A stretch of DNA of 54,578 nucleotides from an uncultured Leptospiraceae bacterium (GCA_964501965.1 CAZCVM010000002.1:1-54578), one strand, 5' to 3'. Positions 14,175 through 49,388 are shown, counted from the first letter of the stretch. Notes: generated from the sequence alone by a model not told the origin. Translations and numbers: made by a program.

Positions 14175-14191
14175 GTTTTGAAAATATATTA

Positions 14192-14812: not shown

Positions 14813-14928
14813 TTTTATGCCCTGAAAATTGTCTTAAAAATAATTTGTTGTTGCCATCAAATCTTACTTCTTCAGATACTTCAAAAATCATTCCATTAAA
14901 AAAAATTAAAAAAGTGTAATTAGCATAA

Positions 14929-28426: not shown

Positions 28427-29592
28427 GTACTTTTGTAAATAGAATTGCTTTGAACCTTATATACGCTATATGATGAACATCCAAGATTATTGGCTATTGA
28501 AGGTAAATTGTTATCCGTTGTTGCTATAAAGCTTTGTTCAGATTTACAAATTACCTGAATCATATTCACATATTTTTCTTTGTCCAATTCATTCATAATA
28601 TCATCTATTAAAATGATTGGGGATATCATTAATGTTTCCTTTAACAACTCCAATTCTGCTAGTTTAATTGCTATGGACACAATTCTTTTTTGTCCTTGAG
28701 ATAAAATATTGTTTGCCTTTTGATTGTTTATTCGAATAAGCATATCTTCTCTATGCGGACCAAATAATGTCATTCCAAGTTGTTTTTCTTTATCAAATGA
28801 CTTTATTGCCAATTCATAAAAATATTTTTTTATGGAATCATAAACAATGTCTATAGAATTTTTTTTATTTTGCATTAAATCATTAAATGTTTCTAAAAAA
28901 ATTGAATATGCAAAATCTATCTGAAAAGGAAAATTGTCCAATTGACCAAGAATTTTTTGAATTTTGGGAAATAATAAAACATATAACACATAAACACGAA
29001 AAAAAACTATTTGAATGGATTTCTCAATGTATATTTCGTTATAAGAATCAAATATTTTTGATTCTTTTTTTAGCAAGAAGTTTCTTTGTTTAAGGATCGA
29101 ATAAAAATCAATAATATGAGTCAAATAATTTCCCTGAATTTTAGTTTGTACTGAATTGACAAAAATTTGAGATAATAAATTGTCAATAAACTGGCGTCGG
29201 ACTGAAGGGCTGCCAGATATTAAAAAAATATCCTCTGGTAAAAATGTTACCGTCCGCATCAGCCCAAAAAAATCTTTTGCTTTTTGAATTTTTGTGTTGT
29301 TGTATTTGAAATATTTTTTTTTCGTTAAACTGTATACTGTACTTAATTTTTGCATATTGTTTTTAGCGTACAATGATGCTTGAATAAAAAAAAAATCTCT
29401 ATTCCAATTAATAAGAATAGAATCAGATACTTTACGAAAAGACCTAGTAGAACTTAAAAAATTAATGGCTTCTAAAATATTTGTTTTTCCGACTCCATTC
29501 TTTCCAGTTATTATTTGCAATCCTTTGTCAAAGGATATATCCAGTGATTCATAATTGCGATAATTTTTTAATGTTAAATTGTTCAAATACAT
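28423..29592 (-). CDS. recF: DNA replication and repair protein RecF
   Basis: 389-aa ORF with the Walker A ITGKNGVGKTNILEAI, the signature LSQGQKR and the Walker B ILIDDIMNELD. Confidence 0.9.
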   Translation of the reverse strand: MYLNNLTLKNYRNYESLDISFDKGLQIITGKNGVGKTNILEAINFLSSTRSFRKVSDSILINWNRDFFFIQASLYAKNNMQKLSTVYSLTKKKYFKYNNTKIQKAKDFFGLMRTVTFLPEDIFLISGSPSVRRQFIDNLLSQIFVNSVQTKIQGNYLTHIIDFYSILKQRNFLLKKESKIFDSYNEIYIEKSIQIVFFRVYVLYVLLFPKIQKILGQLDNFPFQIDFAYSIFLETFNDLMQNKKNSIDIVYDSIKKYFYELAIKSFDKEKQLGMTLFGPHREDMLIRINNQKANNILSQGQKRIVSIAIKLAELELLKETLMISPIILIDDIMNELDKEKYVNMIQVICKSEQSFIATTDNNLPSIANNLGCSSYSVYKVQSNSIYKST

Positions 29593-29633
29593 GCATTTTA
29601 TAAAAAAAATAATTCAAAAATTATCTAATTGCC

Positions 29634-30743
29634 TTAATTGATTTTCAATGGCATTATTACTGAAATATAATTATCATTGTCAATGGCTTTTACTATTGCT
29701 GGCATTTCAGAATCAGAAAATTTAAATTCTATGTTTTCTGTTTCAATCTCTTTTATAGCATCCAATAAATAATTGCTATTAAATCCCATCTCATTTGCTT
29801 CCAAAGCTTTTTCTATTGTTAAATCTTCTTGAGCTGAACCAATATCCGGTGTCTGAGCTTCAATACGCAAATTGTTTTTATTGAATGACAATTTGACTTG
29901 ATGGGCAGCATCGCTGGCCATTAAAGATACTCTTTTGAGTGCTCCGATAAATTGGCTTCTTTCAATTGATACTGAATGAATAGTTTTATTTGGTATTACT
30001 TTTTTGTAATCCGGAAATTTGCCTTGAATCAACCGACAGGATATTTCTATATTGTTTAGTTTAAAATATATTTGATTTTGTGCAATATTGAATAATATTT
30101 CATTATCTGAAATCAATAATTTGTGAAGTTCGCTGATAATCTTACTAGGTATAATAACTCCTTCTTCCAGGTTAACTTTGTATATATTTGAATTCTGGAT
30201 ATAAGCCAAGCGTTTTCCATCGGTAGCAACAAATACAAGATTTTCTTCGTTTGCTTCAAAAAAAACGCCATTAAAAACAAATCTTGAATCATCATTATTT
30301 GCGGCAGCAAAAAATGTTTTTTGCATCATTGATTTGAATAATGGCTGCGGCAAAGAAAATAATTCTATTTGAGGCATTTGCATACGATTTGGATATTCAT
30401 TACTTTCTGAACCAACAATAGTAAAATTAGTTTTATTGTCAGGTGTTGCAATTTTTACTGAATAATTTTCATTAAGCTTCACTGTGATAGGTCCAGGGTT
30501 TAATGAACGAATGATGTTAGCGAATTTTTTCGCTGGCAACATTACAGCTCCTGGTGCAATTATTTCACTCTCTGCGTAACTTTTTATGTTAATATCAGAA
30601 TCAGAAGTTGTTAAAAATATTTTGTTGCTTTTTGCTTCTAACAATACATTGGCCAAAACAGTATCGCTGTTTTTAGGATTAATAATTCCTTCTACAGATA
30701 ATAATGATTTTTGCAAAATATCTTTATCTATTTTGAATTCCAT
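29634..30743 (-). CDS. dnaN: DNA polymerase III beta sliding clamp
   Basis: 369-aa ORF with the three-domain clamp pattern (VLANVLLEA, FVATDGKRLA, IQGKFPDYKKVIP, MPLKI at the C-terminus). It sits immediately downstream of dnaA/oriC. Confidence 0.9.
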   Translation of the reverse strand: MEFKIDKDILQKSLLSVEGIINPKNSDTVLANVLLEAKSNKIFLTTSDSDINIKSYAESEIIAPGAVMLPAKKFANIIRSLNPGPITVKLNENYSVKIATPDNKTNFTIVGSESNEYPNRMQMPQIELFSLPQPLFKSMMQKTFFAAANNDDSRFVFNGVFFEANEENLVFVATDGKRLAYIQNSNIYKVNLEEGVIIPSKIISELHKLLISDNEILFNIAQNQIYFKLNNIEISCRLIQGKFPDYKKVIPNKTIHSVSIERSQFIGALKRVSLMASDAAHQVKLSFNKNNLRIEAQTPDIGSAQEDLTIEKALEANEMGFNSNYLLDAIKEIETENIEFKFSDSEMPAIVKAIDNDNYISVIMPLKIN

Positions 30744-31182
30744 GGAATAACCTCAATTGAAAAAATTTCTTTAGCACTGAAGAAATACTAAATTCTAAAA
30801 GTACACAAAAGATTTCAAGCAAAATGCATTTTATCCACAATATTTCTTTTATTCTATTAATATAATTAATGAAATAAAATAAATATATATAGTAGTTGTC
30901 ATAGTAATTGAGTGGATAAGTGGAAAGTTCATTTTGTTTGATCAATAGTATAATGAAAATATAGAAATAAATAATGATGGAGTGTTAATAACTTTGGGAT
31001 TAATTGTGGGTGTGGTGTTAATACTGAATCCAAAATGTGAATAAGAAAAAATAAGAGATTTTATCCAGATGAATCCATAATTTATTCACAGTTTATTCAC
31101 ATTTTATGTTATAAGATTTGAGCTAAATATGGAGTTTTTTTATTAATTGGTTTTAGTTTTAAATTGAAAAATTAAAAATGAT
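30744..31182. other. Chromosomal replication origin (oriC): DnaA-box cluster plus AT-rich unwinding tracts in the dnaA-dnaN spacer
   Basis: DnaA boxes read directly: TTATCCACA at 30831-30839 (9/9). Five 8/9 boxes follow: agtggataa at 30911-30919 (minus strand TTATCCACT), tgtgaataa at 31035-31043 (minus strand TTATTCACA), ttatccaga at 31059-31067, and ttattcaca at 31082-31090 and 31093-31101. Nearly pure A/T runs lie at 30841-30900 and 31130-31180. Confidence 0.8.
30831..30839 (+). promoter_or_regulatory. Perfect consensus DnaA box TTATCCACA
   Basis: Exact 9-mer match, located inside the oriC spacer. Confidence 0.8.
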
Positions 31183-32571
31183 TTATAGTGAGGATTTGAT
31201 GGATTCTAGTATAGAATGGAAATCTTTATCATTTGTTAATTTTTTATCAATTTCTTTGCGAGCATTAATGATTGTTGAATGATCTCTTCCTCCTAAGTGA
31301 TATCCAATTTCTTTGGTAGTTAAGGAAGTCATTTCAGATATTAAATAAATAGATATAAATCGTGGAATAATCAATTTGTTAATGCGACTTTTTGAGGTTA
31401 TTTCTTTGGCAGAAATGCTATAATGCTTGGCTACTTTTTCAATAATTTCTGAGGCAGAATACTGTTTTTTAATTTCATTTGTTTGGATATATTCTCTTAA
31501 TATGCTATCAATATTGCTGAGGCTGGGGGTGAGGCCATATTGATTTTGGTGCAGTTTGATAGTCAAGATAGCACCTTCTAAGGAACGAATGTTTCCTTTA
31601 ATATTTTTTGCAATATAATACATAATTTCATCAGGAATAGAAATATTCTGATTTTTCGCTTTTTGTTTTATAATTTCTTTTCTGGTTTCTAAATCAGGAG
31701 GTGATATTTTTGTAATCAATCCCCATTGAAAACGATTGCTGATCCTATCAGTCAAATACAATAGCTGATTGGGAGGGCGATCACTCGATATAACGATTTG
31801 ACGCCCGGATTCATATAAAGCATTGAAGGTATGAAAAAATTCTGTTTGGGTTTTTTCTTTGCCTTGAATAAATTGGATATCATCGATTAATAGGATATCC
31901 ACATATCGATATTTGAGTTTGAAATGAGTCGTTTGATTTTTTAATATTGCATCGACAATTTCATTAATAAAAGTTTCTGAATGAACATACAAAACTTTTA
32001 GGTATTCCTTTTCTTTTTGCAATTTTTGAGCAATAGCTTGTAATAAATGTGTTTTTCCAAGTCCTACACCACCCCAAATAAAAAGAGGATTGAATTCTAA
32101 ACCGGGATTTTGAGCTACAGATAAAGCGGCAGCATGCGCATAGTCATTGTGGCTACCAACAACAAAATTGGGGAATGTAAAATTTGGATTTGTTTGGGTT
32201 GAAGGAAATGTTTGGGTTGGTTGATTAAGAGAATAATCCTTTTTTGTTTTTTGCATTACCAAAGGCTTTGAAGAAGGGATATCCGCAGACAATGTTTTGT
32301 TCTTGTCGTAGCTGTTGCTATAAGGAAAACCATCGTAGGAAACTAAATCTATTTTGATCTCTTTGCCAATGATTTCATATATTGCATGAGTAAGTTTTGG
32401 GAAAAAGTGATTTTCCACATGAGTTTTTTTGCGGCTATCATCAAATTCTATTAATATTCTTTCTTTTGTAGAAGAAATTATATTGCTGCCACCAAACCAA
32501 ATATCCACATCTTGTGGATTTATCGAAATTTTTAGATTATTTATAATGTTATTCCATAAATTATCTGACAT
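31183..32571 (-). CDS. dnaA: Chromosomal replication initiator DnaA
   Basis: 462-aa ORF with FTFPNFVVGSHN, the Walker A GGVGLGKTHLLQAI, LLIDDIQF, the sensor regions and the C-terminal DNA-binding block (IAMYL-like ISIYLISEMTSLTTKEIGYHLGGRDHSTIINA). Confidence 0.95.
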   Translation of the reverse strand: MSDNLWNNIINNLKISINPQDVDIWFGGSNIISSTKERILIEFDDSRKKTHVENHFFPKLTHAIYEIIGKEIKIDLVSYDGFPYSNSYDKNKTLSADIPSSKPLVMQKTKKDYSLNQPTQTFPSTQTNPNFTFPNFVVGSHNDYAHAAALSVAQNPGLEFNPLFIWGGVGLGKTHLLQAIAQKLQKEKEYLKVLYVHSETFINEIVDAILKNQTTHFKLKYRYVDILLIDDIQFIQGKEKTQTEFFHTFNALYESGRQIVISSDRPPNQLLYLTDRISNRFQWGLITKISPPDLETRKEIIKQKAKNQNISIPDEIMYYIAKNIKGNIRSLEGAILTIKLHQNQYGLTPSLSNIDSILREYIQTNEIKKQYSASEIIEKVAKHYSISAKEITSKSRINKLIIPRFISIYLISEMTSLTTKEIGYHLGGRDHSTIINARKEIDKKLTNDKDFHSILESIKSSL

Positions 32572-32763: not shown

Positions 32764-33375
32764 TTATCGAATTTGTGGGGGTTGATTAAAAACGGGAAGA
32801 TTTTTTAAATCGTTTAAAGCTAATACAAAATTGTCAGGAATTTTTATTTTCATTTCGTTGAAAGATGAAAAATAATAGGAACGGGCCAATTGAAATGTGC
32901 GGATGGATAACATAAAATGATTAATTCGTTTGTAAGATAGAGCACGGTTTTCTTCTTGCAGAGCCAGTCTGAAATATCTCAATGCCTTTTGGTTTTTAGA
33001 TAATTTGTTGTAATATTTTTTTGCCAAATCTTTTCGGATTTTCTGAGTATGTTCATAATAAACATTTACTAATCCTTGAAGAATGATTTTTTGATTCCTA
33101 TTAATGCTGCGTAGCAATATGTAACTTTTTCTTTTGTTTTGATTTTTTTCATGTTTTTGAGCTAAATTAATATCACTTTGCGTCGCATTAATGATTTTTT
33201 GCATTTTATGTCTTTTAACTCCATTCAATACATATTGAAATTTATCTTGAATATACTGCTGGGTGGTTATCGCTTTTTGTAGTTTTGTTGACCATTGGTT
33301 AGCGAATAATGATTGAATGGACATAAAAAAAACCAATATAAAAAAAATATATTTGATATTATTTTGTTTTTTCAT
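32764..33375 (-). CDS. Hypothetical secreted, basic, all-helical protein
   Basis: Start taken at the Met at 33375 (MKKQNNIKYIFFILVFFMSIQSLFA, a signal peptide). The protein is K/Q/N/R-rich with helical periodicity. The track ORF begins at 33429. Confidence 0.55.
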   Translation of the reverse strand: MKKQNNIKYIFFILVFFMSIQSLFANQWSTKLQKAITTQQYIQDKFQYVLNGVKRHKMQKIINATQSDINLAQKHEKNQNKRKSYILLRSINRNQKIILQGLVNVYYEHTQKIRKDLAKKYYNKLSKNQKALRYFRLALQEENRALSYKRINHFMLSIRTFQLARSYYFSSFNEMKIKIPDNFVLALNDLKNLPVFNQPPQIR

Positions 33376-34171
33376 TTTTGATATCAATTCTTTCTTTTTT
33401 GGATAAATTTTCTTTGGACCCCTGAACAAGAAAAGATTCAGATGCCTTATCTTTTACTGTTTTTGAAGCAGTAGTTTTTTGATTGTTGTCCACATGGTGT
33501 AAAATAATATTGTATTCAGGCCGAAGTTCTTTGTCGCCGCCTTGTTGCAATTCTTTAATTTTTGCGCCAATTTCTTCATAGGTTAGATTTTCTATGGCAA
33601 GTTTTTTGTCTCTTGGAGTTCGTGCTTGAATAATGGCCAAAATCGCATATCTCTTACTGCGTCTGCTGAGTTTGATTGCTTCAATGTATCTTTTTATTTT
33701 ATAAGAATAAAGCCGTTTGGAAGAATGATGCGCAATGACCTGCTGGCTTTTTGATTCTGTTAGATCACGGTATCCTAATGATAAATAAAGTCTAGCCTTG
33801 CTGTCTTTTGAACGAATAATGGTCGGAGCTATACGATCCAGGAGTTTTTTGGCATTACTTAAATAAATATCAATGGTTCGCGCGTATAAATCTACTTGCG
33901 TTTCCTGGGATTTTCGAATTTCAGTGTATGTTCTTTTGTAGTTGCTTTGCAAATAAGCGACCTGAGCCCAAAAATCATGCATGGCAGCTTTGTTGAATAA
34001 TTCAATTTCTTTTTTAGTACCAAAATTGGTTATGGCAATATTGATGTAATTAATAAAGTATTTGTTTTCTTGTAAAAAGCGGTCGGATGAAATTTGATCC
34101 GCAAAGCTCATTAATGCGTATATGGAGAAAAAATGGAGATATATCATTAATATAATTATTTTATATTTCAT
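33359..34171 (-). CDS. Hypothetical secreted helical protein
   Basis: 270-aa ORF with a signal peptide (MKYKIIILMIYLHFFSIYALMSFA). Its composition and R/K-Y-rich helices are similar to those of the downstream neighbour. No family recognised. Confidence 0.55.
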   Translation of the reverse strand: MKYKIIILMIYLHFFSIYALMSFADQISSDRFLQENKYFINYINIAITNFGTKKEIELFNKAAMHDFWAQVAYLQSNYKRTYTEIRKSQETQVDLYARTIDIYLSNAKKLLDRIAPTIIRSKDSKARLYLSLGYRDLTESKSQQVIAHHSSKRLYSYKIKRYIEAIKLSRRSKRYAILAIIQARTPRDKKLAIENLTYEEIGAKIKELQQGGDKELRPEYNIILHHVDNNQKTTASKTVKDKASESFLVQGSKENLSKKERIDIKNEKTK

Positions 34172-34444
34172 AAAGACCTCTTTGGTTTGTAATATGATAC
34201 CATGCGATACAATTATTAATGGTTTTCATAGAATGTATCGGTTTTTGTACCAAAGCAGCTATAATCGTATATAGTATCGTCTAAAATGAAAAAAAATTCA
34301 CTAAAAAACACTTAAAGAAAGTGTGTTGGAGGTGTATGTCCTAGCCGTTATATTTGTCTTTGGTAAAAAAGGCTGGAATAAACATTACGACAAGCACAAC
34401 CAAAAACCAAAGTTTTTTGTATGGGTATTGCTGTATTAATAAGA

Positions 34445-34482
34445 ATTCACAAGTTTTATTTGTTTTATTAAAACTTGTGAAT
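34445..34482 (-). terminator. Hairpin (14-bp perfect stem, 10-nt loop) just downstream of the 34513-35340 gene; probable terminator
   Basis: attcacaagtttta (34445-34458) pairs with taaaacttgtgaat (34469-34482). It lies 31 nt past the stop codon. The trailing U-tract on the minus strand is poor (TCTTATTAAT). Confidence 0.45.
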
Positions 34483-34512
34483 GTAGATAAATGAATAAAA
34501 GGTTTTTTAGGG

Positions 34513-35340
34513 TTATTGTTTTATCGTAAATGTGGATTGTGTCGCCAGTTTTCGATCTTTATTTTCACCCAAAAAGACTTTTATTTTGTATTCGCCCGGA
34601 TCTTTGAAAAAATCAGGTCTAAGCATATAGGAGAAAGACTTTGATTGTGGGTCTATATTGTTTTCTATTTGTTTTCTAAACAATGTTTCATTATTGTTTT
34701 GTATTTTAAAAATTTCTAATGAAATGGTTTGAGTGTTAAATGGTTGATTTTGCGAAATTTTGTAAAAAATTTCACTTTGTGGAGCAAAATTGGTTATATT
34801 GTCTGGAGTTCCGGCAGAAAAAGATGAATTGCTCATAATCATAGATGTTGTTAAACCGCCTGTTTTACCCCATGGAGACCAATAGTATAAAAAAAGCGCA
34901 ACTACGCCGACTAAAATAAGTAAAGATACAATACGTTTCATATTTCCCTCTTTATTGTTTGATTTATCTAATTCTCTATTTGATTTTTCAGTGGTTTTAT
35001 CAGTAAAGCTATTTTTATTTTCAGCTTTAGCTGATGGTGAAAATTTTTCCCAACTCGCATTTTCAGATGTATTCCATGAAGCTGAAGCAGCTCCTGTCAA
35101 TCTAGTTTCTTTTTTTTTCTGTTTTGTTAGTTCTTCTTTTTTTTCTGTTTTTGGGTCTTCGGTTTGTTCGCTAGGTTTTTCATTTTCCATGCTTATTGTC
35201 CTTTCTTCCGATGAAATTGGTTTATTTTTTTGATCTTGCATGTCTTCTACAAGTTCAGATAATATATTTTGTCTTTTTTCCAGACCTTGCTTTATTGATT
35301 CATCAATAGCCTTATTAAATTTATCCTTTGATGACGGCAT
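34513..35340 (-). CDS. Hypothetical bitopic membrane protein: charged K/E-rich N-terminus, one TM, C-terminal domain of about 115 aa
   Basis: 275-aa ORF with the TM IVSLLILVGVVALFLYYW. Its start overlaps the stop of the ParA-like gene by 20 nt, so co-transcription is inferred. Confidence 0.6.
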   Translation of the reverse strand: MPSSKDKFNKAIDESIKQGLEKRQNILSELVEDMQDQKNKPISSEERTISMENEKPSEQTEDPKTEKKEELTKQKKKETRLTGAASASWNTSENASWEKFSPSAKAENKNSFTDKTTEKSNRELDKSNNKEGNMKRIVSLLILVGVVALFLYYWSPWGKTGGLTTSMIMSNSSFSAGTPDNITNFAPQSEIFYKISQNQPFNTQTISLEIFKIQNNNETLFRKQIENNIDPQSKSFSYMLRPDFFKDPGEYKIKVFLGENKDRKLATQSTFTIKQ

Positions 35341-36103: not shown

Positions 36104-36225
36104 ATTATTTGCTACAATATTTACTTGATTTATTTTTTTTGTAATAATGAAAGTTGCAAGACAAAAAGCCAAGTACATTTTTTTTTGTAAGTAAGTTATT
36201 TTGCAAGTAGGGAATTTTTTAAATA

Positions 36226-38379
36226 ATGGTAGCATTTCAAATCTTTCGGCGAAAAAAACACAGACAAACGTACCCTTTTGCGTCCTCCCGGGGGTCAATA
36301 TTACTAGTTACGCTATCTGCTGTTGTATTATTGCTGTTTTTTGCTATTGCAATTTACAATATTTATAAAAATTATCATTATTTGCGTATCAGAGATCATC
36401 GGTTAACTCAATTGCAGTGGCAATCTCGGTCTTTGCTAAGTCTATTGGCTCATCAAGTGACTTCTTCTCCGGATTTTTTCTATAAATTGATAGATAGAAA
36501 GAAAATAAATTTGAAACAATTGTTTATAAATTCTGATGAAAATAATAATGATGTGAAAAAACAAAGTAGTCTTTACTCTCAAAAAGCTCAGCAAATCTTG
36601 AACCAAAAACATGGTGTTGTATTTTTAGAAAAAACCCAGGATGCAAACATTTTTGAATTGAAGGTTGAACTATCGCAATACAATTTAAAGGTAGAGTCAA
36701 GTTTAATATTAAAAAAATTTAGTTATAGTGATTATCTATTTTATTTCAATAAAAATTTACAGCTTATAGCCGTTGAAGAGCCTTTGAGGTTTTATGGACC
36801 GATTTTTGTTTCTGGCAATTTAGAGCTGGGGGCTTATATGGGAAATATTTATTTTTATAAATCAAATAATGTTATCACGCCCTTACTGTATAGTGAAGGA
36901 AAGATTTCAGAATTTCGTGGATTGAAGAATCCGCAAGGGATTATATTTGGTATTGGCACAATAGATTTGGATAAAGACAATCCGATTCGGTCTATTTCCA
37001 AAGAAACCAGTTGGCAGGCTTTAAATCAGAGCGATGGTTCGACATGGTTTATGGATCAGAGTAATGGCGCATCTCAAATTGCGTTTTTGACTTATGGTGA
37101 CATGGTTCAACATGTTCAAAAAAATAGAAAAAAAATTCAAAAGTATTCTTTAGGAAAACGAGGAGGATTTTCGGAAATTAGCATTGTCAATCCAAAATTG
37201 TTACGAAAACAGTTTTTAGGCTTTGGTACTGGAAGCAAGTCATTTTTCAATCATAATGCTGGTTATATACCAAATCGAGTTTATGTTGCGCGTATCGTGG
37301 ATAATCAGAAGGCTTCTAGTCAACATATTCATCCTATAGAAGCATTGGACAATTCAAAAAAGCCTGATCAAAATGTTTCGTATGGATCTATTCAGTTTCT
37401 GAAAGATATTGTGCCGTTGGATTTGCCGGATCAAGCATTTGCGGATTTTGGCGTTATTCGATTGGGCGGACGCGGTTGGAGCAGGATAGCCAGAGATTTG
37501 CCTATCAGAGATTTGTATCTCAATGGAAAAACAAAAGAAAACCAATTGAAAGGTAATGATTTTTTTTATGACGCAACAAAAAAGGAATTGCGATTTTTTA
37601 ATGAATACCACAATAGTTATTATAAAATATTAGATGATGCTAAGCCGGATGGAAAAAAACGGGATTTTCCCATGATGAAATATTTTCCTGCTTATGGTTA
37701 TGTGAATGGAAAAAAGAAAAATATGACAGCCATAAAAGGAAGAATAATTTTTGATGTGGCGCCCCCTGCGGGATCAACTATAGGGATACTCACTCAAAAA
37801 CCTGATATATATATCCGCAAAGAAATGCCCGAAACTGGTATGGGTGTATTTGTTGATAAACCAATATATGCTTTGCATGTGGATTTGGGACAGCTCGCGG
37901 ATCCGGATTCAATAATTGTTTATCATTTTTTTTGTCCAATTTATGTAACCGGAAATGCTGCCACAAAAATTGTTATTGTTAGTGAACATGATGTTTATTT
38001 GGGAGATATAAATAATTCTAATAATGCATCTGAAAATAAAGCAGTAACAATTGTATCTAAGGGCGTAGTATGGGCGTTGAACAAAAATGGAAAAACTTTG
38101 TCGATAAAAAATGTATGGCTGCATTCTGCTGGGGATCAGTTGTTTTCTGTATATGCGCAAAACCCGGAAGCCAAAAAGAAAAATCTATTTTTAGGTTCTG
38201 CAACGTTTAGTGGATTGTTGACCAATGCTTTTGTTGAACAATCCCTTGTTTCCAGTTATTTGTATACTATTGAATATTTTGATGGATGGAATTTTGTATA
38301 CGATTCAAGTTTTATTGAGCCAGATGGCCAGCCTGATGGTGTACCGGTGACATATACTATAGAAGGTGTGAATTGGTAA
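36226..38379 (+). CDS. Large hypothetical protein with a PilX-N-like (pseudopilin-like) N-terminal anchor
   Basis: 717-aa ORF. The N-terminus RGSILLVTLSAVVLLLFFAIAIYNIY resembles the PilX_N / minor-pilin type hydrophobic segment. The rest is beta-rich and N/G/Y-rich, with no motif I recognise. Confidence 0.65.
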   Translation: MVAFQIFRRKKHRQTYPFASSRGSILLVTLSAVVLLLFFAIAIYNIYKNYHYLRIRDHRLTQLQWQSRSLLSLLAHQVTSSPDFFYKLIDRKKINLKQLFINSDENNNDVKKQSSLYSQKAQQILNQKHGVVFLEKTQDANIFELKVELSQYNLKVESSLILKKFSYSDYLFYFNKNLQLIAVEEPLRFYGPIFVSGNLELGAYMGNIYFYKSNNVITPLLYSEGKISEFRGLKNPQGIIFGIGTIDLDKDNPIRSISKETSWQALNQSDGSTWFMDQSNGASQIAFLTYGDMVQHVQKNRKKIQKYSLGKRGGFSEISIVNPKLLRKQFLGFGTGSKSFFNHNAGYIPNRVYVARIVDNQKASSQHIHPIEALDNSKKPDQNVSYGSIQFLKDIVPLDLPDQAFADFGVIRLGGRGWSRIARDLPIRDLYLNGKTKENQLKGNDFFYDATKKELRFFNEYHNSYYKILDDAKPDGKKRDFPMMKYFPAYGYVNGKKKNMTAIKGRIIFDVAPPAGSTIGILTQKPDIYIRKEMPETGMGVFVDKPIYALHVDLGQLADPDSIIVYHFFCPIYVTGNAATKIVIVSEHDVYLGDINNSNNASENKAVTIVSKGVVWALNKNGKTLSIKNVWLHSAGDQLFSVYAQNPEAKKKNLFLGSATFSGLLTNAFVEQSLVSSYLYTIEYFDGWNFVYDSSFIEPDGQPDGVPVTYTIEGVNW

Positions 38380-38390
38380 TGAAAGGGTAA

Positions 38391-40499
38391 ATGATGTCTA
38401 AAAAAAATTTTTATCATATTGCTGAAAAGAAAAAATTGTTAATTATTGACGCGCATGATACAATTTTCAAACGCGATTTGAGCCGGTCTACCCAAAATAT
38501 ATTTTTAAATCCTGATCAAAAAGACAAAGTAGAATGGCGATTGCGTTCTGGTTTTACAAATTTTTTGGATTTTTTTAAGGGAATACGAAAAGCAAAAATT
38601 GTTATTAGTTCTGATGGCGATCAGGATCGATTGCATGATTTATGTACTCGATTTGGCATAATTAAACAGATTGATGCTATTTATGGCTACAATCATATTC
38701 ATAAAGAAACTTTTTTAAAGCAATTGGATTTAATTTTGAATGATTTGAATGTTTTACCGGAAGAAGCGGTTTTTATTGGAGATGGAAAAATTGATGAGTA
38801 TTCGGCAAAAAAATATGGTGTTCAATATATAAAAGTTCCCAATACTCTAGAAGATTTAACTTTTTCATTCAACGTTTTTTTTCCCCAGGAAGAATATGGC
38901 ACAGGGCCAAATTTGGAACTGCAAAATTTAGTGAATTTTAAAAAGGTTTATCACAACTGTACATCTCCTTGTTTGGTAGAATTTTCTATCAAACAAAATG
39001 AAGGCAAACTGGCGCATCTTGGAGCTTTAGCTGTAGATAGCGGAAACTTCCATAAGCATTTGGGGCATGGACGATACATTGTGAAAGAGCCGTCTAGTGA
39101 GAATCGTATAGATTGGCAAAACCCTGCATTTGAACCATTTGATGCTCAGCATTTTCATTTGCTTCAATTGAGACTTCAGGCCTTTTTACAGGATAGAGAA
39201 ATTTTTGTGCAGGATTGCTATGTAGGGTCTCAATCTCAACATCAAAAACCTTTGCGCATAATTACCCAAACCGCATGGCATAGTCTTTTCGCTCGAAATA
39301 TGTTTGTTCAAGGAAGCATAACACAGTTGCAATCGTTTTTTCCCGAATTTACTGTGATTCATGTTCCATTTTTCAAGGCAATACCGGATTTGGATGGTAC
39401 CAAGACCGAAGAGTTTGTCATTATTAATCTTTTGAAAAAAATTGCGTTGATTGGCGGTACAAGCTATGCAGGAGAGATTCGACGTGCTATTTATATGCTC
39501 ATGGGATATTTTTATTTGGAAGAAGATGTTTTGCCGGTTAAATGCTCGTCCAATCAAGGAAAGAATAATGGTGATACAGCGTTTTATTATGGTGAAGCAA
39601 GTACTACAAAAAGCAGCATAACTTTGAACAAAGATCGGTTTTTTTTGGGAGATGCTTTTCATGGTTGGAGCAATACTGAGGTGTTCAATTTAGAATGGGG
39701 AAGCTATTTGCCAGTATCCAATTTATCTATGGAAAAGAGTGAAATAATTTTTGAATCATGTCATAAATTTGCCACAATATTGGAAAATACGCATATTACA
39801 GATGAGCGCAGAATAAATTTTAATGAGCCATATAGTGATAGCAATGCCAGAGCTAGTTTTCCAATAACCCATATTGATGACGCTGTACGTTCTGGCATAG
39901 GACAAAGGCCTCAAAATGTTTTTATTATAATAAAAGATGGACTGGGAATTTTGCCACCATTGGTTCAATTGAGCCGGGAACAAGCAATCGTTTTTTTGCT
40001 TTTAGGGTATAATTCTGAGATGATGCATGATTATTCTGAGTCCATTTTTTCTGAAAATGCTCGTTTTTTTCCATTTTTTAAGGATCATCCCTTTGTGTTG
40101 AAGCCTTCTGTTTACGCGCTGTACTTGTGGGAAAAATTGGAATCATCGCAAAGCAAATGTTGGTTGCTAAATAAATCACATTTTGGCAGTCTAAAAGCTG
40201 GAACCGGTTGGTTTACAAAGTCTTATAGTTTACGTTTAGTAAACTTTGTTTTTGAAAATAGTCAAATCGATCTGACGGACAATTTAAACTGGGGATTTAG
40301 ATATTTGAATCATTCTCCTTTTCCAAAAGAATTGGAAGACTATCATTTCAATATTACTAATGTCTGGCCGGACTATGATGAATACTTAGTTCGCGAGAAA
40401 GCTTTGATTTTGAAAATAAACGAAATAATGGAGCCATATATAAAGGATTTGGATCCTCCGATTGTAAATTCTATACCAAAACTTATAAAGAAAATGTAG
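38391..40499 (+). CDS. Fusion protein: N-terminal HAD-like hydrolase domain plus C-terminal ATP-type PEP carboxykinase-like domain with a degenerate active site
   Basis: 702-aa ORF. HAD blocks: LLIIDAHDTIF (motif I with His at the Asp+2 position), VISSDG and FIGDGKIDEYSA. PEPCK_ATP-like blocks: LGALAVDSGNF, ITQTAWHSLFARNMFV, LIGGTSYAGEIRRAIYMLMGY, FYYGEASTTKSSIT, LGDAFHGW, NARASFPITHID and GILPPLVQLS. Confidence 0.75.
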   Translation: MMSKKNFYHIAEKKKLLIIDAHDTIFKRDLSRSTQNIFLNPDQKDKVEWRLRSGFTNFLDFFKGIRKAKIVISSDGDQDRLHDLCTRFGIIKQIDAIYGYNHIHKETFLKQLDLILNDLNVLPEEAVFIGDGKIDEYSAKKYGVQYIKVPNTLEDLTFSFNVFFPQEEYGTGPNLELQNLVNFKKVYHNCTSPCLVEFSIKQNEGKLAHLGALAVDSGNFHKHLGHGRYIVKEPSSENRIDWQNPAFEPFDAQHFHLLQLRLQAFLQDREIFVQDCYVGSQSQHQKPLRIITQTAWHSLFARNMFVQGSITQLQSFFPEFTVIHVPFFKAIPDLDGTKTEEFVIINLLKKIALIGGTSYAGEIRRAIYMLMGYFYLEEDVLPVKCSSNQGKNNGDTAFYYGEASTTKSSITLNKDRFFLGDAFHGWSNTEVFNLEWGSYLPVSNLSMEKSEIIFESCHKFATILENTHITDERRINFNEPYSDSNARASFPITHIDDAVRSGIGQRPQNVFIIIKDGLGILPPLVQLSREQAIVFLLLGYNSEMMHDYSESIFSENARFFPFFKDHPFVLKPSVYALYLWEKLESSQSKCWLLNKSHFGSLKAGTGWFTKSYSLRLVNFVFENSQIDLTDNLNWGFRYLNHSPFPKELEDYHFNITNVWPDYDEYLVREKALILKINEIMEPYIKDLDPPIVNSIPKLIKKM

Positions 40500-40504
40500 C
40501 TTTC

Positions 40505-41989
40505 ATGCAAAGGATATCTTTTGTGCAAAATAAAATCACAGATGATTGGCTAAAAAAAATACAAAGCAAAGAAAAACAAGCACTCAAGCAGGTGAAAAAG
40601 GTATTCGATTTAGATCAATCTGATTGGCAGGTTGTTGACTTTTGGCAAAATTGCAAAAACGATAGGCAACAGAGTTGTTTTGTCCATGATATCTGGATTT
40701 ATCGATTGGGTAATTCTGTGTATGTAGCAAAAAATGAGGAGGTCTTTGAGGAGTTAGATCAATGCGCAAGCCGTGATTATCAGAATTTTGCAAGTTTTGT
40801 GCAGTCATTATTTCAATATGAAGAATCCTGCGTGCCGGTGAATACATTTTCATTCTTAGATGAACCAGAACAAAAGCCTGTTACTTTTTATCGCTCCTAT
40901 TTTTTGGGTAAATGGGACATAGTCATGAGTATTCAAGATTGTACAAAAATTTCGAATGTGACAGATGCAAAGATTCGAGAGCTTTTTGTTTTATACTGCA
41001 AAGAAAAAGAAAGTATCATTCAATATCAGAATAAACAATTGGTAAATATTTACAATAGGCATGGTCGTGATGTTATCAATGAAGTGTTGGCTTCTGTATT
41101 CGGATTTTTGTTGAATGTTCGTGTCCCTCAGAATTATTTTGGCTACAAAAAATTTCAATATACTCGGGCGTATTCAGAAAAGCCAAGTAATGGTTTGGAA
41201 CGATTTGTTGTTTCTAAAGCTTTGTGCGAAAGAATGCCCTGTCTTGACTTAAAGCAGGCTATGCAAAATGTTTTGGACCAGCAACATAAAGATAAAATTA
41301 TCGAAGAAGATAACCAATTTAGTGTTGGTACACAGAAAATGGCAAAAGAAGATTTTGTGGATTTTAAAAATTTGCTGCAATTGAATTGGCATAACGCAAA
41401 TCCATTTCAAATATGTTTCAAAAAGTCAGGTATGAATTATGCAAATACGACTTTGTTAAGAAATTTTATTGAAAAGAACTTTGTCCATTACAAAGATATG
41501 ATTCAATCCCATGTTTTGGATCAAATATTTGGTGCTTCTAAGGATAGGAAAATTGAGGAGTTTGTTTTGCCTGAAGGAAATACTGGCCGCATTTTTACAG
41601 TGGATTATGGAGAGATTCTTTTTCCAGAATTGAGTATGCCTCAAGATGAACCCCATTATCAATTTAGAAAGAAATCTGAATGGCACAGAATCAAACTTTT
41701 TTTGCAAAATGTAACGATGGAAAATAAAATATACAAACAGGCTGTAGCAGAAACAATTCTTAATCTTGCTTTTATTTCAAAAGATTTTGTTTTGCAATTT
41801 GTGCATAGTATTCCGGATGTATTTTTTAAGTACTATTGGGATGAGAATCGCTTTTGTTATTTTTCACAAACTTTAGCGGATTATTTATTATCTTTAATTG
41901 CGCAGGTTAGGTATTTTTTTATGATTGACAAGGATTGCGATTTTGTTCAAGCAAAAGAATACATTTGGGCTTATTATTGTTTGGATTGA
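40505..41989 (+). CDS. Hypothetical protein, 494 aa (third gene of the operon)
   Basis: The ORF begins 5 nt after the preceding stop. Composition is cytoplasmic. The only motif-like stretch is [31 protein letters not shown]. Confidence 0.6.
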
Positions 41990-44136
41990 TTTTTTATAAG
42001 TCTTTGCAATATTTGGATGGCTGATTCTACGATAGGAGTGCCTGGCCCAAAAATAAAATCAACGCCTTTTTCAAATAAATACGGGTAATCCTGGCTGGGA
42101 ATGACTCCTCCGGCAACGACTATTGCTTCATATAGACCCATTTGGTGCATTTGATCGATTGTCTCAGGAATCAGTGTTTTGTGCCCACCAGCTAAACTGG
42201 ATATGCCCAGGATATGAACATCGCTTTCAATTGCCTGGCGTGCGACTTCGGTGGGCGTTTGAAAAAGTGGGGCTAAATCCACATCAAAACCCATATCCGC
42301 AAAGCTTGAAGCAACAACTTTTGCTCCTCGGTCGTGACCGTCTTGACCTAATTTAGCTATGAGTATGCGAGGCCGTCTTCCTTCTGTTTCTGAAAACTTA
42401 TTTGCTAAATCCATTGCTTGCGCAAAGCTTTTGTTGTCTGTCATTGCTTTTTTATAAATACCTGTATTTATTTTCGATTGGTTTTCAAAGCGAGTGAAAA
42501 TAGTTTCACATGCGCTAGAAATTTCCCCTATTGTGGCTCTATGTTGGGCTGCAATTATGGCATATTCGAGTAGGTTGTTTGTTTTGTCTCGGCACGCCTG
42601 AGTCAAGTTGTTAAGTGCTTTTGCTACTTCTGGGGCATCACGCTCCTTTTTTATTTCAGTCAATTTTTCTATTTGTTTTTTTCGCACAAGGTAGTTGTCC
42701 ACTTCCAAAATTTCAATGTCATAATTGGGTTCATTGTGGGACACCATATATTCATTGACTCCGACAATGATATCTTGTTTCGAGTCAATACGCGCCTGCC
42801 GCTTGGCTGATGCTTCTTCAATTTTTCCTTGAGGTATTCCCAGTTCAATGGCTTTGGCCATGCCGCCATGCTTTTCGATTTCAGATATATGATGCCAAGC
42901 TTTTTCCATCAATTTATTGCTAAGGTTTTCAATATAATAAGAACCTGCTACCGGATCTATACAGTCTAAAAGATCGGTTTCGTTTTGTAAAAACAATTGC
43001 GTATTGCGCGCAATTCGCGCAGAAAAGTCAGTTGGTAAGGCAATGGCTTCATCCAGGGCGTTGGTGTGCAAAGATTGAGTGTGTCCCAAGACCGCAGCCA
43101 GTGCTTCGAGGTTGGTACGAGTGATATTGTTGAATGGGTCTTGTTCTGTAAGACTATAACCAGATGTCTGACAATGCGTTCTAAGTGCCATGGATTTGTT
43201 GTTTTGCGGATTAAATTGTTTAACAATTTTTGCCCACAAAGCTCTCCCTGCACGCAGTTTGGCTATTTCGGTAAATATATTCATGCCAATGCCCCAAAAA
43301 AAAGACAGTCTGGGCGCAAATTGATCAATATTTAATCCAACAGAAACACCTTTGCGCAAATATTCCAATCCATCTGCTAATGTATAAGCTAGTTCTAAAT
43401 CTGCGGTAGCACCAGCTTCTTGAATATGGTATCCGCTAATACTAATAGAATTGAAACGCGGCATTTTTTTCGCTGTAAAGGAAAAAATATCTCCAATAAT
43501 CCTCATGGATGGCTCCGGTGGATATATATATGTGTTCCGAACCATAAATTCTTTGAGTATATCGTTTTGAATGGTACCTGAGAGTTTGTTGGTATCTACA
43601 TTTTGTTCCATTGCCGCGACGATATAAAATGCCAGTATAGGCAATACGGCTCCGTTCATAGTCATAGAAACAGATATTTTCTCCAAGGGGATGCCCTGGA
43701 ACAGGTCCTTCATATCTTCAACTGTGTCGATCGCAACACCTGCTTTGCCCACATCACCCAGAACCCGTTCATGATCTGAGTCATAGCCTCGATGAGTCGC
43801 TAAATCAAAAGCAACAGATAATCCTTTTTGTCCGGCCTGTAAATTTTTGTGATAAAAGGCATTGGATTCTTCTGCTGTAGAAAAACCAGCATATTGGCGG
43901 ATTGTCCAAGGCCGATTGAGGTACATAGAAATATATGGGCCGCGAAAAAATGGAGGATATCCGGACAAACCAGAATGAAGATCAAAATCGTCTTTTTCCG
44001 GTGATGAATATGTGTTTTTGATTACAAACTCTTCTGGACTTATCCAGTTGTTTGTTTTTAGATTTGAGATTGTCGCATTGTTTTGCTTGATTTTTTTATA
44101 ATAATCAAATGGAATTTTATTAAATAGATTTCTCAT
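41974..44136 (-). CDS. mutB: Methylmalonyl-CoA mutase large (catalytic, B12-binding) subunit
   Basis: 720-aa ORF with [29 protein letters not shown] and RIARNTQ. The C-terminal cobalamin domain carries [13 protein letters not shown] (DxHxxG). Confidence 0.9.
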
Positions 44137-48503: not shown

Positions 48504-49388
48504 TTATTGGGGGAGCATTTCCCAGGCTGTGACCCAAATAGTATTTGTTTTTTTGAAGCCATAAACTTGAATGAGTCTTTTTTCAAAATCTGGCATGTGT
48601 ATCGCGCCATAAAATATCGCGATTTTCTTTTTGTTTTTTTTTAGTTCTTGCGCGAGTATGTTCATGGCTTTGTCATTGCGGCGAGTGATAATCACTGTGG
48701 GCTTATTGGTCAAAAAAGATGCGTTGAAGTTGTGGGCAAAATGATAAGCCAATTTGGTTTTTAACCTATCTGCGTATTTTTTGTAAAATAGGTATCCAAA
48801 TATATCAGACCATCCTAGCGCGTACTTAGAATCTATTTTCTTTTGTGATGCCATGCTCTGATCCCAGGATTCCTGCCAGATCATCTCCCAAATATTTTCT
48901 TTGTGTTTTTTTGTATAATATTGATAGGTGTGCCAATCCATGTCTGCATGCACAAAATTTGATGCATGATAATTGATCCATTGCAATTGCATTTGTAAAT
49001 CCAGCATAGAAGCCAATTTGTTTTGCAATTGGCCGATACGGCTACGATTTGTGAGTTGCTTAAACTTGTTTTGTGGCAACGAGTCTTTGGTGCCCACAAG
49101 CTCAAAAAGCACTGCATCGTATTGCTTAAAAATTTGATTCAGGTTTTGATAGTATTTTTTATCAGCTATATGGACCGCAGCCACTAAATCAATTTGGATA
49201 TTGTTTTTTTGATATTGAATGATCGCTGTTTGCATTTTGTTGAAAGAAGTGACGCCAATATTCTTCGCAGGTACAAAACGGATAAATTGACTGGCATTTG
49301 ATGTTTGTAATATATCCCAGGCACTTAAAGAAAACGGCAATACAAGCCAAATTGCTATCAGATAGATTATGTACTGAAAATACTTCAT
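48504..49388 (-). CDS. Secreted TraB/GumN (Tiki-superfamily)-like protein
   Basis: 294-aa ORF with a signal peptide (YIIYLIAIWLVLPFSLSA). IDLVAAVHIADKKYY...AVLFELV matches the GxxH...E pattern seen in the TraB paralogue at 14929. FYGAIHMPDF resembles the second His motif. Confidence 0.5.
   Translation of the reverse strand: MKYFQYIIYLIAIWLVLPFSLSAWDILQTSNASQFIRFVPAKNIGVTSFNKMQTAIIQYQKNNIQIDLVAAVHIADKKYYQNLNQIFKQYDAVLFELVGTKDSLPQNKFKQLTNRSRIGQLQNKLASMLDLQMQLQWINYHASNFVHADMDWHTYQYYTKKHKENIWEMIWQESWDQSMASQKKIDSKYALGWSDIFGYLFYKKYADRLKTKLAYHFAHNFNASFLTNKPTVIITRRNDKAMNILAQELKKNKKKIAIFYGAIHMPDFEKRLIQVYGFKKTNTIWVTAWEMLPQ

Follow-up and report, generated by a model that had tools for sequence, protein, structure and literature searches.

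Organization of the Locus

The window analysed here is a 54,578-nucleotide stretch of DNA from an uncultured Leptospiraceae bacterium (GCA_964501965.1, CAZCVM010000002.1:1-54578). Three long genes of the positive strand lie beside the replication origin, as the original prediction had placed them; gyrB, recF, dnaN and dnaA are found between 25.7 and 32.6 kb, and the minimum of the window's cumulative GC-skew falls at approximately 28-30 kb. The genes and the spacer that precedes them are as follows:

36104-36225, AT-rich spacer of 122 nt between the divergent ParA-like gene and gene 1, read directly from the sequence
36226-38379, positive strand, gene 1 (717 aa)
38391-40499, positive strand, gene 2 (702 aa)
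40505-41989, positive strand, gene 3 (494 aa)

The three open reading frames (ORFs), the gaps of 11 nt and 5 nt that separate them, the 122-nt spacer from the ParA-like gene and the 16-nt overlap with mutB had all been predicted, and each matched when re-read from the sequence, bearing out that these are real genes in a tight arrangement. Gene 1 ends with a TAA codon at 38377-38379 and is followed by 11 nt (tgaaagggtaa), holding a Shine-Dalgarno-like AAGGG, before the ATG of gene 2 at 38391; gene 2 ends with a TAG codon at 40497-40499, 5 nt ahead of the ATG of gene 3 at 40505. Downstream lies the convergent mutB ORF (41974-44136, minus strand), the 3′ end of which overlaps the end of gene 3 (stop at 41989) by 16 nt. 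Since each of the three ORFs exceeds 490 codons in sequence of 34% G+C, and since each has homologues elsewhere, they are more than chance occurrences. The narrow gap between genes 1 and 2 suggests that these two are co-transcribed, and genes 1 to 3 are probably expressed as one transcript.

On the upstream side, the ParA-like gene is encoded on the minus strand with its start at 36103; the ORF extends to a TTG at 36298, but it is from the ATG at 36103 that the N-terminus of ParA is obtained. The 122-nt spacer is presumed to be the promoter region of genes 1 to 3. Sigma-70-like hexamers are present in this region at 36120-36148 and 36200-36227, found in a scan whose 34 sites are not above the shuffled background of 27.1 ± 5.8.

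A Conserved Two-Gene Cassette

Genes 2 and 3 together make up a conserved cassette that occurs in several bacterial phyla. Their homologues are adjacent in 13 of 13 loci outside the window that were fetched before a metagenome scan, and in that scan gene 2 was present at every locus with sequence beyond gene 3 (20/20). When neighbouring genes were clustered, the gene 2 and gene 3 families alone were common to all 13 sources, the window included, and the two families comprise nearly equal numbers of homologue clusters, approximately 46 for gene 2 and 45 for gene 3, the latter having been described as an orphan of 494 aa, which these homologues contradict. The pair is distributed over about six deep lineages, including Spirochaetales and several Gammaproteobacteria. 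Gene 3 homologues with 29-35% identity lie directly beside homologues of gene 2, a HAD-PEPCK fusion described below, at loci L001, L003/L005 (Spirochaetales) and L004, and a search using just gene 3 returned eight loci from Gammaproteobacteria/Pseudomonadota MAGs, in which a HAD-PEPCK homologue is again adjacent. Both gene orders are found, and among the loci with gene calls read the spacing ranges from an overlap of 8-14 nt to a gap of 81 nt. That at least the last two genes would co-occur in other genomes had been offered as a fallback, and at each informative locus examined the two do adjoin each other. The pair, which is probably cytoplasmic, is undescribed.

Gene 1 Encodes a Pilin-Like Neighbour

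One feature of gene 1 is marked by its translation, by the N-termini of its family and by a modelled helix:

36295-36363, positive strand, hydrophobic pilin-like N-terminal segment of gene 1 (aa 24-46)

The gene 1 product begins with a basic leader that runs to SSRG, directly followed by SILLVTLSAVVLLLFFAIAIY, and consists of a long helix spanning aa 21-80 and, beyond it, a body rich in beta structure. An exhaustive HMMER search with this protein yielded 44 proteins at E <= 0.001, counting the query, mostly of about 650 aa, and the family has in common an N-terminal (K/R)(G/A)S with approximately 20 hydrophobic residues after it. The N-terminus of gene 1 is class III signal-like in its basic leader, Gly and run of about 20 hydrophobic residues, as it is in most of 30 aligned members; it has no Glu at +5, a residue likewise absent in PilX/GspK-type minor pilins. 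No Pfam or NCBIfam family was found for gene 1, and the Pfam pilin models PilX_N and N_methyl gave no match at E <= 1 for gene 1 itself or at E <= 0.1 for 30 homologues. The AF2 model (pLDDT 83.5) has as its best fold match in the PDB the competence pilin ComZ, a weak match (6qvi; E 2e-3, prob 0.63, TM ~0.2). The predicted PilX-type N-terminus and the beta-rich body after it are upheld, the resemblance being one of residue pattern, fold and genomic context; the Pfam PilX_N model itself gives no score.

Gene 1 shares its large size, N-terminal hydrophobic helix and beta-rich body with ComZ of Thermus thermophilus (6qvi; PMC6561018) and with the PilX/GspK minor pilins. Two of its distant homologues occur in secretin/PilM/T2SSF clusters: PilM and secretin genes adjoin homologue P0170, and secretin and T2SSF genes adjoin homologue P0171. 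It differs from the ComZ/PilX pilins in its weak fold match, in having no Pfam match and in its surroundings, no type IV filament genes being found in the window or in L004. Gene 1 is best read as a minor (pseudo)pilin of large size, similar to ComZ, PilX and GspK, from a type IV filament system.

The original prediction had joined all three genes in one envelope-linked system, composed of a membrane-anchored 717-aa protein and two cytoplasmic proteins. Genes 1 and 2 do share a strand and are only 11 nt apart, and in L004, the closest relative, a gene 1 homologue with 40% identity lies within the same operon-like string. However, of the fetched loci with the pair, L004 is the only one where a gene 1 homologue stands beside it, and there a LigT gene is inserted between this homologue and gene 2; gene 1 homologues are absent at L001, at L003/L005, at the gammaproteobacterial genome loci and at 28 metagenome loci. 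Among four distant gene 1 homologues with contexts read, two are surrounded by secretin/PilM/T2SSF clusters and none is near the pair. The window and L004 also have mutB-mutA-hemE synteny in common, so the adjacency may be inherited gene order. A single system of three genes is therefore unlikely, and gene 1 is a lineage-specific neighbour outside the conserved cassette. A functional link restricted to this lineage is possible, the adjacency being kept in L004 as well as in the window and the gap in the window being 11 nt.

Gene 2 Fuses a HAD Domain to a Degenerate PEPCK

Gene 2 consists of a HAD domain fused to an ATP-type PEPCK fold, an architecture repeated in approximately 45 homologue clusters:

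38436-38840, positive strand, HAD domain of gene 2 (aa 16-150)
38910-40481, positive strand, pseudo-PEPCK domain of gene 2 (aa 174-697)

Pfam HAD_2 matches aa 67-149 with 33.5 bits (gathering cut-off 23.8), covering only profile positions 95-178, and PEPCK_ATP (PF01293) matches aa 185-600 with 363 bits (E 3e-108). These matches and the active-site alignments bear out the prediction that the middle gene joins a HAD module to a catalytically degenerate PEPCK; no description of such a fusion was found in the literature.

Gene 2 was aligned residue by residue with 1j3b, the PEPCK of T. thermophilus (311 bits), and with 1ygg. The whole fold of PckA (PF01293; 1j3b of T. thermophilus, 1aq2 of E. coli) is recognisable in aa 174-697, with shared structural residues including GDxxHGW, Q-D-C and W-x-x-L-F-x-R-N-M-F; unlike PckA, gene 2 has a HAD domain at its N-terminus and replacements in the P-loop, the Mn ligands and the R65 equivalent. 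Its P-loop reads GEASTTKSS, against GLSGTGKTT in eight canonical PckAs, and relative to canonical PEPCK, KK is changed to RR, MHCSAN to VKCSSN, GDDEHGW to GDAFHGW and FEGGCYAK to LEWGSYLP. In E. coli PckA numbering, the equivalents of R65, K213, H232, the P-loop and D269 are all replaced and those of Y207 and R333 are kept; K213, H232 and D269 are the Mn2+ ligands of the E. coli enzyme, and R65 and R333 are Arg residues that bind PEP/oxaloacetate.

Similar losses extend across the fusion family. Of 45 fusions, 43 have a degenerate P-loop GxxGxGK(T/S), and most members have lost the equivalents of R65 (His in gene 2, mostly Ala across the family), Y207, H232 and R333 (Ile, Val or Met in most members), the Mn-ligand His being changed to R/K/L/N; the D269 equivalent is retained by many. 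The positions for substrate, metal and nucleotide binding vary within the family and are not re-fixed to a new set, while the conserved parts of the cleft comprise GDxxHGW, N-x-E-W-G, R364 and, mostly, K407. Judged by these residues, the PEPCK fold of gene 2 has lost its catalytic capacity as a PEPCK.

Gene 2 could be regarded as the working PckA of the organism with an extra N-terminal domain, since the PEPCK_ATP match of 363 bits is strong and homologues are annotated as phosphoenolpyruvate carboxykinase (ATP) at source. This is extremely improbable in view of gene 2 itself, in which the P-loop glycines, the R65 equivalent and every one of the three Mn ligands are replaced, and of the loss of the same sites in most family members, though many keep the D269 equivalent. 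None of the NCBIfam PckA equivalog cut-offs is reached, the scores of gene 2 being about half of them (286.5 vs 590 for TIGR00224, 334 vs 806 for NF006822 and 380.7 vs 636 for NF006820). Moreover, the fusion coexists with canonical PckA in other genomes, an intact PckA lying directly beside it in two separate clades, with the order g3-g2-pckA in one gammaproteobacterial clade and pckA-g2′ in the P0016 clade. No adjoining pckA is found within the available DNA of the window or of L004.

The HAD domain, by comparison, has kept its motifs: D20-A-H22-D-T24 (motif I), S73 (II), K110 (III) and G-D131-x-x-x-D135 (IV), with D20, H22, T24, S73/S74, K110, D131 and D135 conserved at 93% or more in 45 fusion proteins. 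The nucleophile Asp and the Thr of motif I are invariant, and the Asp+2 position is His in 45/45 aligned fusions. The nearest sequence relatives are small-molecule phosphatases of subfamily IA, and the region of motifs II to IV aligns with HAD phosphatases (Pfam HAD_2; PDB 4rn3, 2om6, 2ah5), query residue 52 falling opposite chain residue 97 in the alignment to 4rn3. Features shared with these enzymes are the Asp nucleophile, Thr+4, Ser, Lys and GDxxxD; features that set gene 2 apart are the D-A-H-D-T form of motif I, in which His replaces the Asp+2 general acid/base, a short cap insert, which at approximately 50 aa between motifs I and II is about half as long as usual, and the fusion to a pseudoenzyme domain of about 525 aa. 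With its Asp nucleophile, His at Asp+2 and reduced cap, the HAD domain looks active, and the His in place of Asp at the general acid/base position may indicate chemistry other than that of a simple phosphatase.

Gene 3 Represents a Predicted Kinase-Like Family

No Pfam or NCBIfam family was found for gene 3, nor any Pfam domain in its homologue clusters; the kinase families Pkinase, HipA_C, PI3_PI4_kinase and APH of Pfam gave no match in 41 + 10 family members, and PDB profile searches with gene 3 were empty. The protein had been predicted to contain no recognisable domain, a view not supported by its single, confident AF2 model (pLDDT 87.1, pTM 0.84), which best matches protein kinases. The top four Foldseek matches in the PDB are chains of the Helicobacter pylori kinase CtkA (prob 0.97-0.99), the best of them weak (E 0.02, TM 0.30/0.48), and lower-ranked, weaker matches include NahK, LYK3, mTOR, SMG1, PINK1 and ATM. 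The residues of interest lie in the following segment:

41543-41614, positive strand, putative catalytic loop and DFG-like motif of gene 3 (D347-R-K349-I-E-E352 ... T365-V-D367-Y-G-E370)

Within it, D347, R348, K349, T365, D367, G369 and E370 are invariant in 11 sequences from about six deep lineages, position 352 being E or D; K76/E78 and G187-R-D189 are also invariant in this set, and K76 is, from sequence only, the candidate N-lobe Lys. In kinases, the catalytic-loop Asp and the DFG-type Asp are spaced by approximately 20 residues. In gene 3 the invariant D-x-K-x-x-(E/D) and D-x-G, candidates for these motifs, stand at a similar distance of 20 residues. Gene 3 departs from CtkA (PDB 3akl/3akk) and the wider protein-kinase-like fold (HipA, PI3K/PIKK and APH-type kinases) in the acidic residue at the Mg-binding Asn position and in TM-scores of only 0.3-0.5, and its sequence could be linked by homology neither to a kinase family nor to a solved structure. 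Gene 3 belongs to an unnamed new family that is predicted to adopt a protein-kinase-like fold, with a catalytic loop (D-R-K-x-x-E/D) and D-x-G-E motif that look intact, and we infer that it is an active kinase.

CtkA itself is a secreted effector associated with a mobile element (PMC5536186), unlike the gene 3 family, whose members are chromosomal and have the HAD/dead-PEPCK gene as their partner. The structural match to this atypical bacterial Ser/Thr kinase, the tight coupling of genes 2 and 3 and a weak HipA_2 match (E 0.1) in one family member could be taken to indicate a toxin-antitoxin or defence module, with gene 3 as a HipA-like kinase toxin and gene 2 as the neutralising partner. There is very little to recommend such a module when PADLOC returns 0 matches for all three proteins, hhalign of gene 3 against E. 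coli HipA is negative (probability 0.1) and no HTH antitoxin gene is adjacent. The gene 3 family is also absent from viral contigs, its neighbours are housekeeping genes and not defence islands, and its chromosomal context is stable within lineages, as between L003 and L005 (81% identity).

Proposed Function of the Gene 2 and Gene 3 Pair

The best explanation of the locus, which we hold with about even confidence, is that gene 1 is a separate pilin-like neighbour and that genes 2 and 3 form a kinase/phosphatase switch built on a dead-PEPCK scaffold. Gene 3 would phosphorylate a target, the HAD domain of gene 2 would act as a phosphatase on that same target and take the phosphate off, and the dead PEPCK domain would serve as a docking, decoy or ligand-sensing scaffold.

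A small-molecule pathway is a weaker contender, perhaps half as probable. Gene 3 would then phosphorylate a metabolite, as kinases of the APH, NahK or MtnK kind do, and the HAD domain would be a metabolite phosphatase or phosphomutase, with the PEPCK-derived domain repurposed as a ligand-binding or new catalytic module near PEP/oxaloacetate. The subfamily-IA small-molecule phosphatases among the HAD relatives, the N-acetylhexosamine kinase and aminopropanol kinase among the Foldseek matches of gene 3, the conserved parts of the PEPCK cleft, the pckA neighbours in two clades and an FBPase gene located two genes upstream in L004 are consistent with such a pathway. Against it, the HAD cap that normally encloses small substrates is cut to about 50 aa, the PEPCK pocket positions vary in the family with no new fixed set, the best fold match of gene 3 is the protein kinase CtkA, and no conserved metabolic neighbour of the pair besides pckA was found.

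For the kinase/phosphatase switch, the recurrent adjacency of a real pckA invites comparison with HprK/P, AceK and the PEP synthetase regulatory protein. These are single bifunctional kinase/phosphatase proteins from unrelated sequence families, each of which switches an enzyme where central metabolic pathways branch, and the catalytic domain of HprK/P has a PEPCK-like fold. Unlike these regulators, genes 2 and 3 would split the two activities over two proteins, and their PEPCK-like part lacks a P-loop. From the recurrence of pckA as a neighbour, though in two clades only, it is suggested that the target or signal of the switch would lie at the PEP-oxaloacetate (gluconeogenic) node.

Organization and chromosomal setting of the locus

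Three ORFs occupy the plus strand of this region, with coordinates, strand and lengths exactly as in the original prediction:

36226-38379, + strand, gene 1, ORF of 717 aa, pilin-like protein
38391-40499, + strand, gene 2, ORF of 702 aa, fusion of a HAD domain with a PEP carboxykinase (PEPCK)-derived domain
40505-41989, + strand, gene 3, ORF of 494 aa, predicted kinase-like protein

Read from the sequence, the junction of genes 1 and 2 consists of a TAA stop, 11 nt containing AAGGG, and an ATG start, and that of genes 2 and 3 of TAG, 5 nt and ATG. Gene 3 and a convergent gene for methylmalonyl-CoA mutase (41974-44136) overlap by 16 nt, the stop of gene 3 lying in the 3′ end of the mutase gene, and a spacer of 122 nt separates gene 1 from a divergent ParA-like gene starting at 36103. 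Co-transcription of genes 1 to 3 is suggested by this spacing; a consensus promoter and terminator scan did not rise above shuffled background and was uninformative on internal promoters. No RNA families or tRNAs were found in the window by Rfam and tRNA scans.

The predicted position next to the origin is borne out by gyrB, recF, dnaN and dnaA at 25.7-32.6 kb of the window, together with the cumulative GC-skew minimum, which place the chromosomal origin region here. This minimum and a G+C trough of 26-28% agree at ~28-31 kb (28000-31200), between recF/dnaN and dnaA, consistent with an oriC that precedes the three genes by ~5 kb. Three minus-strand ORFs that match no Pfam family (32764-35340; 221, 270 and 275 aa) separate dnaA from the ParA-like gene; the longest, of 275 aa, shares 20 nt with the end of the ParA-like gene and occupies the position expected for a ParB-like partner. 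The window also carries two TraB/PrgY/GumN-family genes, one with a strong score (14929-16110, 132 bits) and one just under the Pfam cut-off of 26.8 bits (48504-49388, 25.6 bits), as well as a solitary FliN-type flagellar switch gene (FliMN_C, 20816-21379), the scanned ORFs of the window containing no further flagellar gene.

Genes 2 and 3 form the conserved unit

Gene 3, described in the original prediction as an orphan, belongs to a family of 45 homologue clusters, every one annotated as hypothetical protein, and a Pfam scan of 51 members identified no domain. BLASTP and tblastn of loci fetched by means of gene 2 homologues (L001, L003 with L005/6 from Spirochaetales, L004, the closest relative, and L007/8) located a gene 3 homologue of 29-35% identity directly adjoining gene 2. 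The reverse search gave the same association: when genomes were scanned with an alignment of gene 3, eight loci from gammaproteobacterial and Pseudomonadota MAGs were recovered, all eight with gene 2 adjacent, and a metagenome scan recovered 28 loci, with gene 2 following gene 3 in all 20 that extend beyond it, the remaining eight contigs stopping within or just past gene 3. The order is gene 2-gene 3 in the window, L001, L003-6 and L004, and gene 3-gene 2 in the gammaproteobacterial loci, and the two genes are separated by short distances, from overlaps of 8-14 nt up to gaps of 81 nt in loci with gene calls read. Pairwise identities of 36-58% between groups of gene 2 proteins define about six deep lineages. 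When neighbouring ORFs were clustered, the gene 2 and gene 3 families alone were common to all 13 sources (window included), and no other conserved neighbour was found apart from pckA, the gene for the canonical ATP-dependent enzyme. The gene 3 family was absent from viral contigs. Genes 2 and 3 are the conserved unit of the locus; of the proposed trio, these two are adjacent elsewhere, but a gene 1 homologue lies near them only in L004.

Gene 1 encodes a probable ComZ-like pilin

A word-indexed search with gene 1 returned the query itself only, and an exhaustive HMMER search identified 44 proteins at E <= 0.001, query included, mostly of ~650 aa and with no Pfam domain. Their N-termini comprise a short basic leader, (K/R)(G/A)S and approximately 20 hydrophobic residues. 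In the gene 1 model (pLDDT 83.5), a helix over residues 21-80 leads into a beta-rich body, and among PDB structures the model matches ComZ of T. thermophilus best (E 2e-3, prob 0.63). ComZ is a large pilin associated with competence, for which a role as a DNA receptor at the pilus tip has been proposed (PMC6561018). Of the four distant homologues that could be placed, two lie beside PilM and secretin genes or between secretin and T2SSF genes. In L018 (2900-6457) the homologue directly follows the secretin gene, with a PilM_2 gene upstream, and in L022 (8575-13446) it directly follows the secretin gene and precedes a T2SSF gene; these loci define an unannotated family of 650-735-aa proteins tied to type IV filament clusters. 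A 466-aa gene following the gene 1 homologue in L021 was considered as a relative of gene 3 and proved unrelated to it.

The gene 1 homologue of L004 (40% identity) is separated from the pair by a gene for LigT, a 2H phosphoesterase/2′-5′ RNA ligase (4772-5329), which overlaps the start of the gene 2 homologue by 8 nt. L004 and the window have mutB-mutA-hemE synteny in common. Upstream in L004 there are also a poly(A) polymerase-like gene and, at a distance of two genes, an FBPase gene. Gene 1 is absent from all other fetched loci bearing the pair, and the original reading of the three genes as one envelope system is among the less likely ones.

Gene 2 fuses a HAD domain to a degenerate PEPCK

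Gene 2 matches Pfam PEPCK_ATP (363 bits, aa 185-600) and HAD_2 (33.5 bits, aa 67-149), and reaches approximately half of the cut-offs of the NCBIfam PckA models. Its active site was compared residue by residue with those of T. thermophilus PEPCK (1j3b) and 1ygg, and in a 53-sequence alignment including eight canonical PckAs.

Active-site motifs of canonical PckA and their counterparts in window gene 2
P-loop: GLSGTGKTT in canonical PckA, GEASTTKSS in gene 2
GEIKK in canonical PckA, GEIRR in gene 2
MHCSAN in canonical PckA, VKCSSN in gene 2
GDDEHGW in canonical PckA, GDAFHGW in gene 2
FEGGCYAK in canonical PckA, LEWGSYLP in gene 2

With the P-loop and Mn ligands replaced, the predicted catalytic degeneracy of the fused PEPCK is upheld. 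In most of 45 fusions, the P-loop and the residues corresponding to R65, Y207, H232 and R333 (E. coli PckA numbering) are lost or vary; an invariant Arg stands in place of K212, and many fusions have lost K213 and D269. The replaced catalytic residues and low NCBIfam scores essentially exclude an ordinary functional PckA, which the original prediction had given as an example of a refuting annotation. The HAD-PEPCK architecture is common to ~45 clusters. Some of them, with sources in Spirochaetales, Planctomycetes, Gammaproteobacteria and Pseudomonadota MAGs, carry the public name 'phosphoenolpyruvate carboxykinase (ATP)', which is almost certainly wrong for the fusion. Nothing relevant to PEPCK pseudoenzymes or HAD-PEPCK fusions was found in the searchable literature. 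A 158-aa ORF (39186-39662, minus strand) lies antisense within gene 2, like those opposite gene 2 homologues elsewhere; the simplest view is that such ORFs merely mirror the conserved coding strand and are not genes.

In the HAD part, residues D20, H22, T24, S73/S74, K110, D131 and D135 are at least 93% conserved in 45 fusions. Motif I reads D-A-H-D-T, with an unusual His at the Asp+2 position, and motifs I and II are unusually close, only ~50 residues apart. The cap appears to be reduced, because the HAD_2 match is confined to profile positions 95-178 and the alignment to 4rn3 sets gene 2 residue 52 against chain residue 97. The short cap insert is itself highly conserved (D29, S31, R32, W49, R52). 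In the HAD superfamily, cap loss tends to accompany macromolecular substrates.

Gene 3 has a predicted kinase-like fold

The AlphaFold2 model of gene 3, built from a 41-sequence alignment, is confident (pLDDT 87.1, pTM 0.84). Four chains of CtkA, a Ser/Thr kinase of H. pylori, head its Foldseek matches in the PDB (prob 0.97-0.99, E 0.02-0.06, TM 0.3/0.48), followed by weaker matches to N-acetylhexosamine kinase, LYK3, mTOR, aminopropanol kinase, SMG1, PINK1 and ATM, with unrelated helical-repeat proteins intermixed. Residues invariant in 11 sequences from all deep lineages include H61, K76/E78 (A-K-x-E, on a strand), G187-R-D189, D347-R-K349 (followed by E/D at 352) and T365-x-D367-x-G-E370. 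The D-x-K-x-x-(E/D) and D-x-G motifs, 20 residues apart, have the appearance expected of a kinase catalytic loop and a DFG-type motif. Searches of the PDB with gene 3, one by phmmer and two with profiles, gave only spurious ApoA-I or AMSH matches or nothing, and none of the sequence methods used (Pfam, PDB searches, hhalign) supported homology to any kinase; from the model, gene 3 is probably a kinase. A HipA-like toxin-antitoxin function for gene 3 and gene 2 is less likely; hhalign of gene 3 against E. coli HipA was negative, and PADLOC returned no matches to any of the three proteins.

Association with canonical pckA and proposed function

One gammaproteobacterial clade, whose gene 2 proteins are 78-96% identical to one another, has a canonical PckA gene with all motifs intact (GEMKK, HCSAN, GLSGTGKT, GDDEHGW, NTR) directly downstream of gene 3-gene 2, so that a real PEPCK and a dead one adjoin in these genomes. 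L009, L010, L012 (pckA at 13724-15337), L014 and L016 show this arrangement, as do 10 metagenome loci (L025, L027, L029, L031-L035, L038 and L048). Recent tandem duplication of the adjacent pckA is unlikely as the origin of the fusion, because the two are only ~23-28% identical and the fusion is closer by PDB score to the Thermus-type enzyme (1j3b, 311 bits) than to the E. coli type (187 bits).

In a different sub-group of fusions, P0016 (region 6027-9787 of L023 and 2198-5958 of L024) is encoded 60 nt downstream of a canonical pckA and is 43% identical to window gene 2. It retains an intact P-loop (GCSGAGKTS) and has lost the Mn ligands; the P-loop of fusion P0018 is likewise intact (GSTGAGKTS). 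No gene 3 was found near the P0016 fusion in L023 or L024, the only lineage seen to combine an intact P-loop with absence of gene 3, and fusions of this type may represent an evolutionary intermediate. A PPDK_N gene lies ~3 kb downstream in these loci.

The most economical reading is that genes 2 and 3 encode a kinase/phosphatase pair, with the kinase assigned from the predicted fold. The HAD domain, which appears to have lost most of its cap, is tethered to a large PEPCK-derived domain which, because it cannot catalyze the PEPCK reaction, would most plausibly dock a partner or sense a ligand. The main alternative is that the two proteins act in a small-molecule pathway and not on a protein: the nearest relatives of the HAD domain are metabolite phosphatases and some fold matches of gene 3 are metabolite kinases. 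For the kinase/phosphatase pair, the repeated adjacency to pckA points to a target or signal at the PEP-oxaloacetate node. A more specific proposal, which we consider rather improbable, is that the pair is a regulatory system of this node, in which the dead PEPCK would serve as decoy or sensor tethered to an unusual His-containing HAD phosphatase, gene 3 would be the founding member of a new protein-kinase-like family, and PckA or a related gluconeogenic target would be switched on and off by phosphorylation. Under this proposal the P0016-type fusions, with P-loop kept and beside pckA without gene 3, would be the evolutionary intermediate, from a stage at which the PEPCK-derived domain would have carried out the ATP-dependent step on its own, a task later passed to a separate kinase.

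Systems of the kinase/phosphatase type and pseudoenzymes as such are already known; the new elements, as far as found, are a pseudoenzyme derived from PEPCK, the joining of this pseudoenzyme to a HAD domain with the His variant, and a strictly co-occurring kinase-like family without an existing model. A PEPCK-derived pseudoenzyme is new as far as the literature search could find, and the public name of the fusion could put a false gluconeogenic step into metabolic reconstructions of the MAGs that bear it. The gene 3 family, with its predicted kinase fold and no Pfam model, would add a new branch to the bacterial kinase-like proteins, and gene 1 adds a family of ~650-720-aa putative ComZ-like minor pilins without a Pfam model. 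Genes 2 and 3 are strictly paired in several phyla and repeatedly adjoin a real pckA, which suggests that bacteria control the PEP-oxaloacetate node post-translationally.
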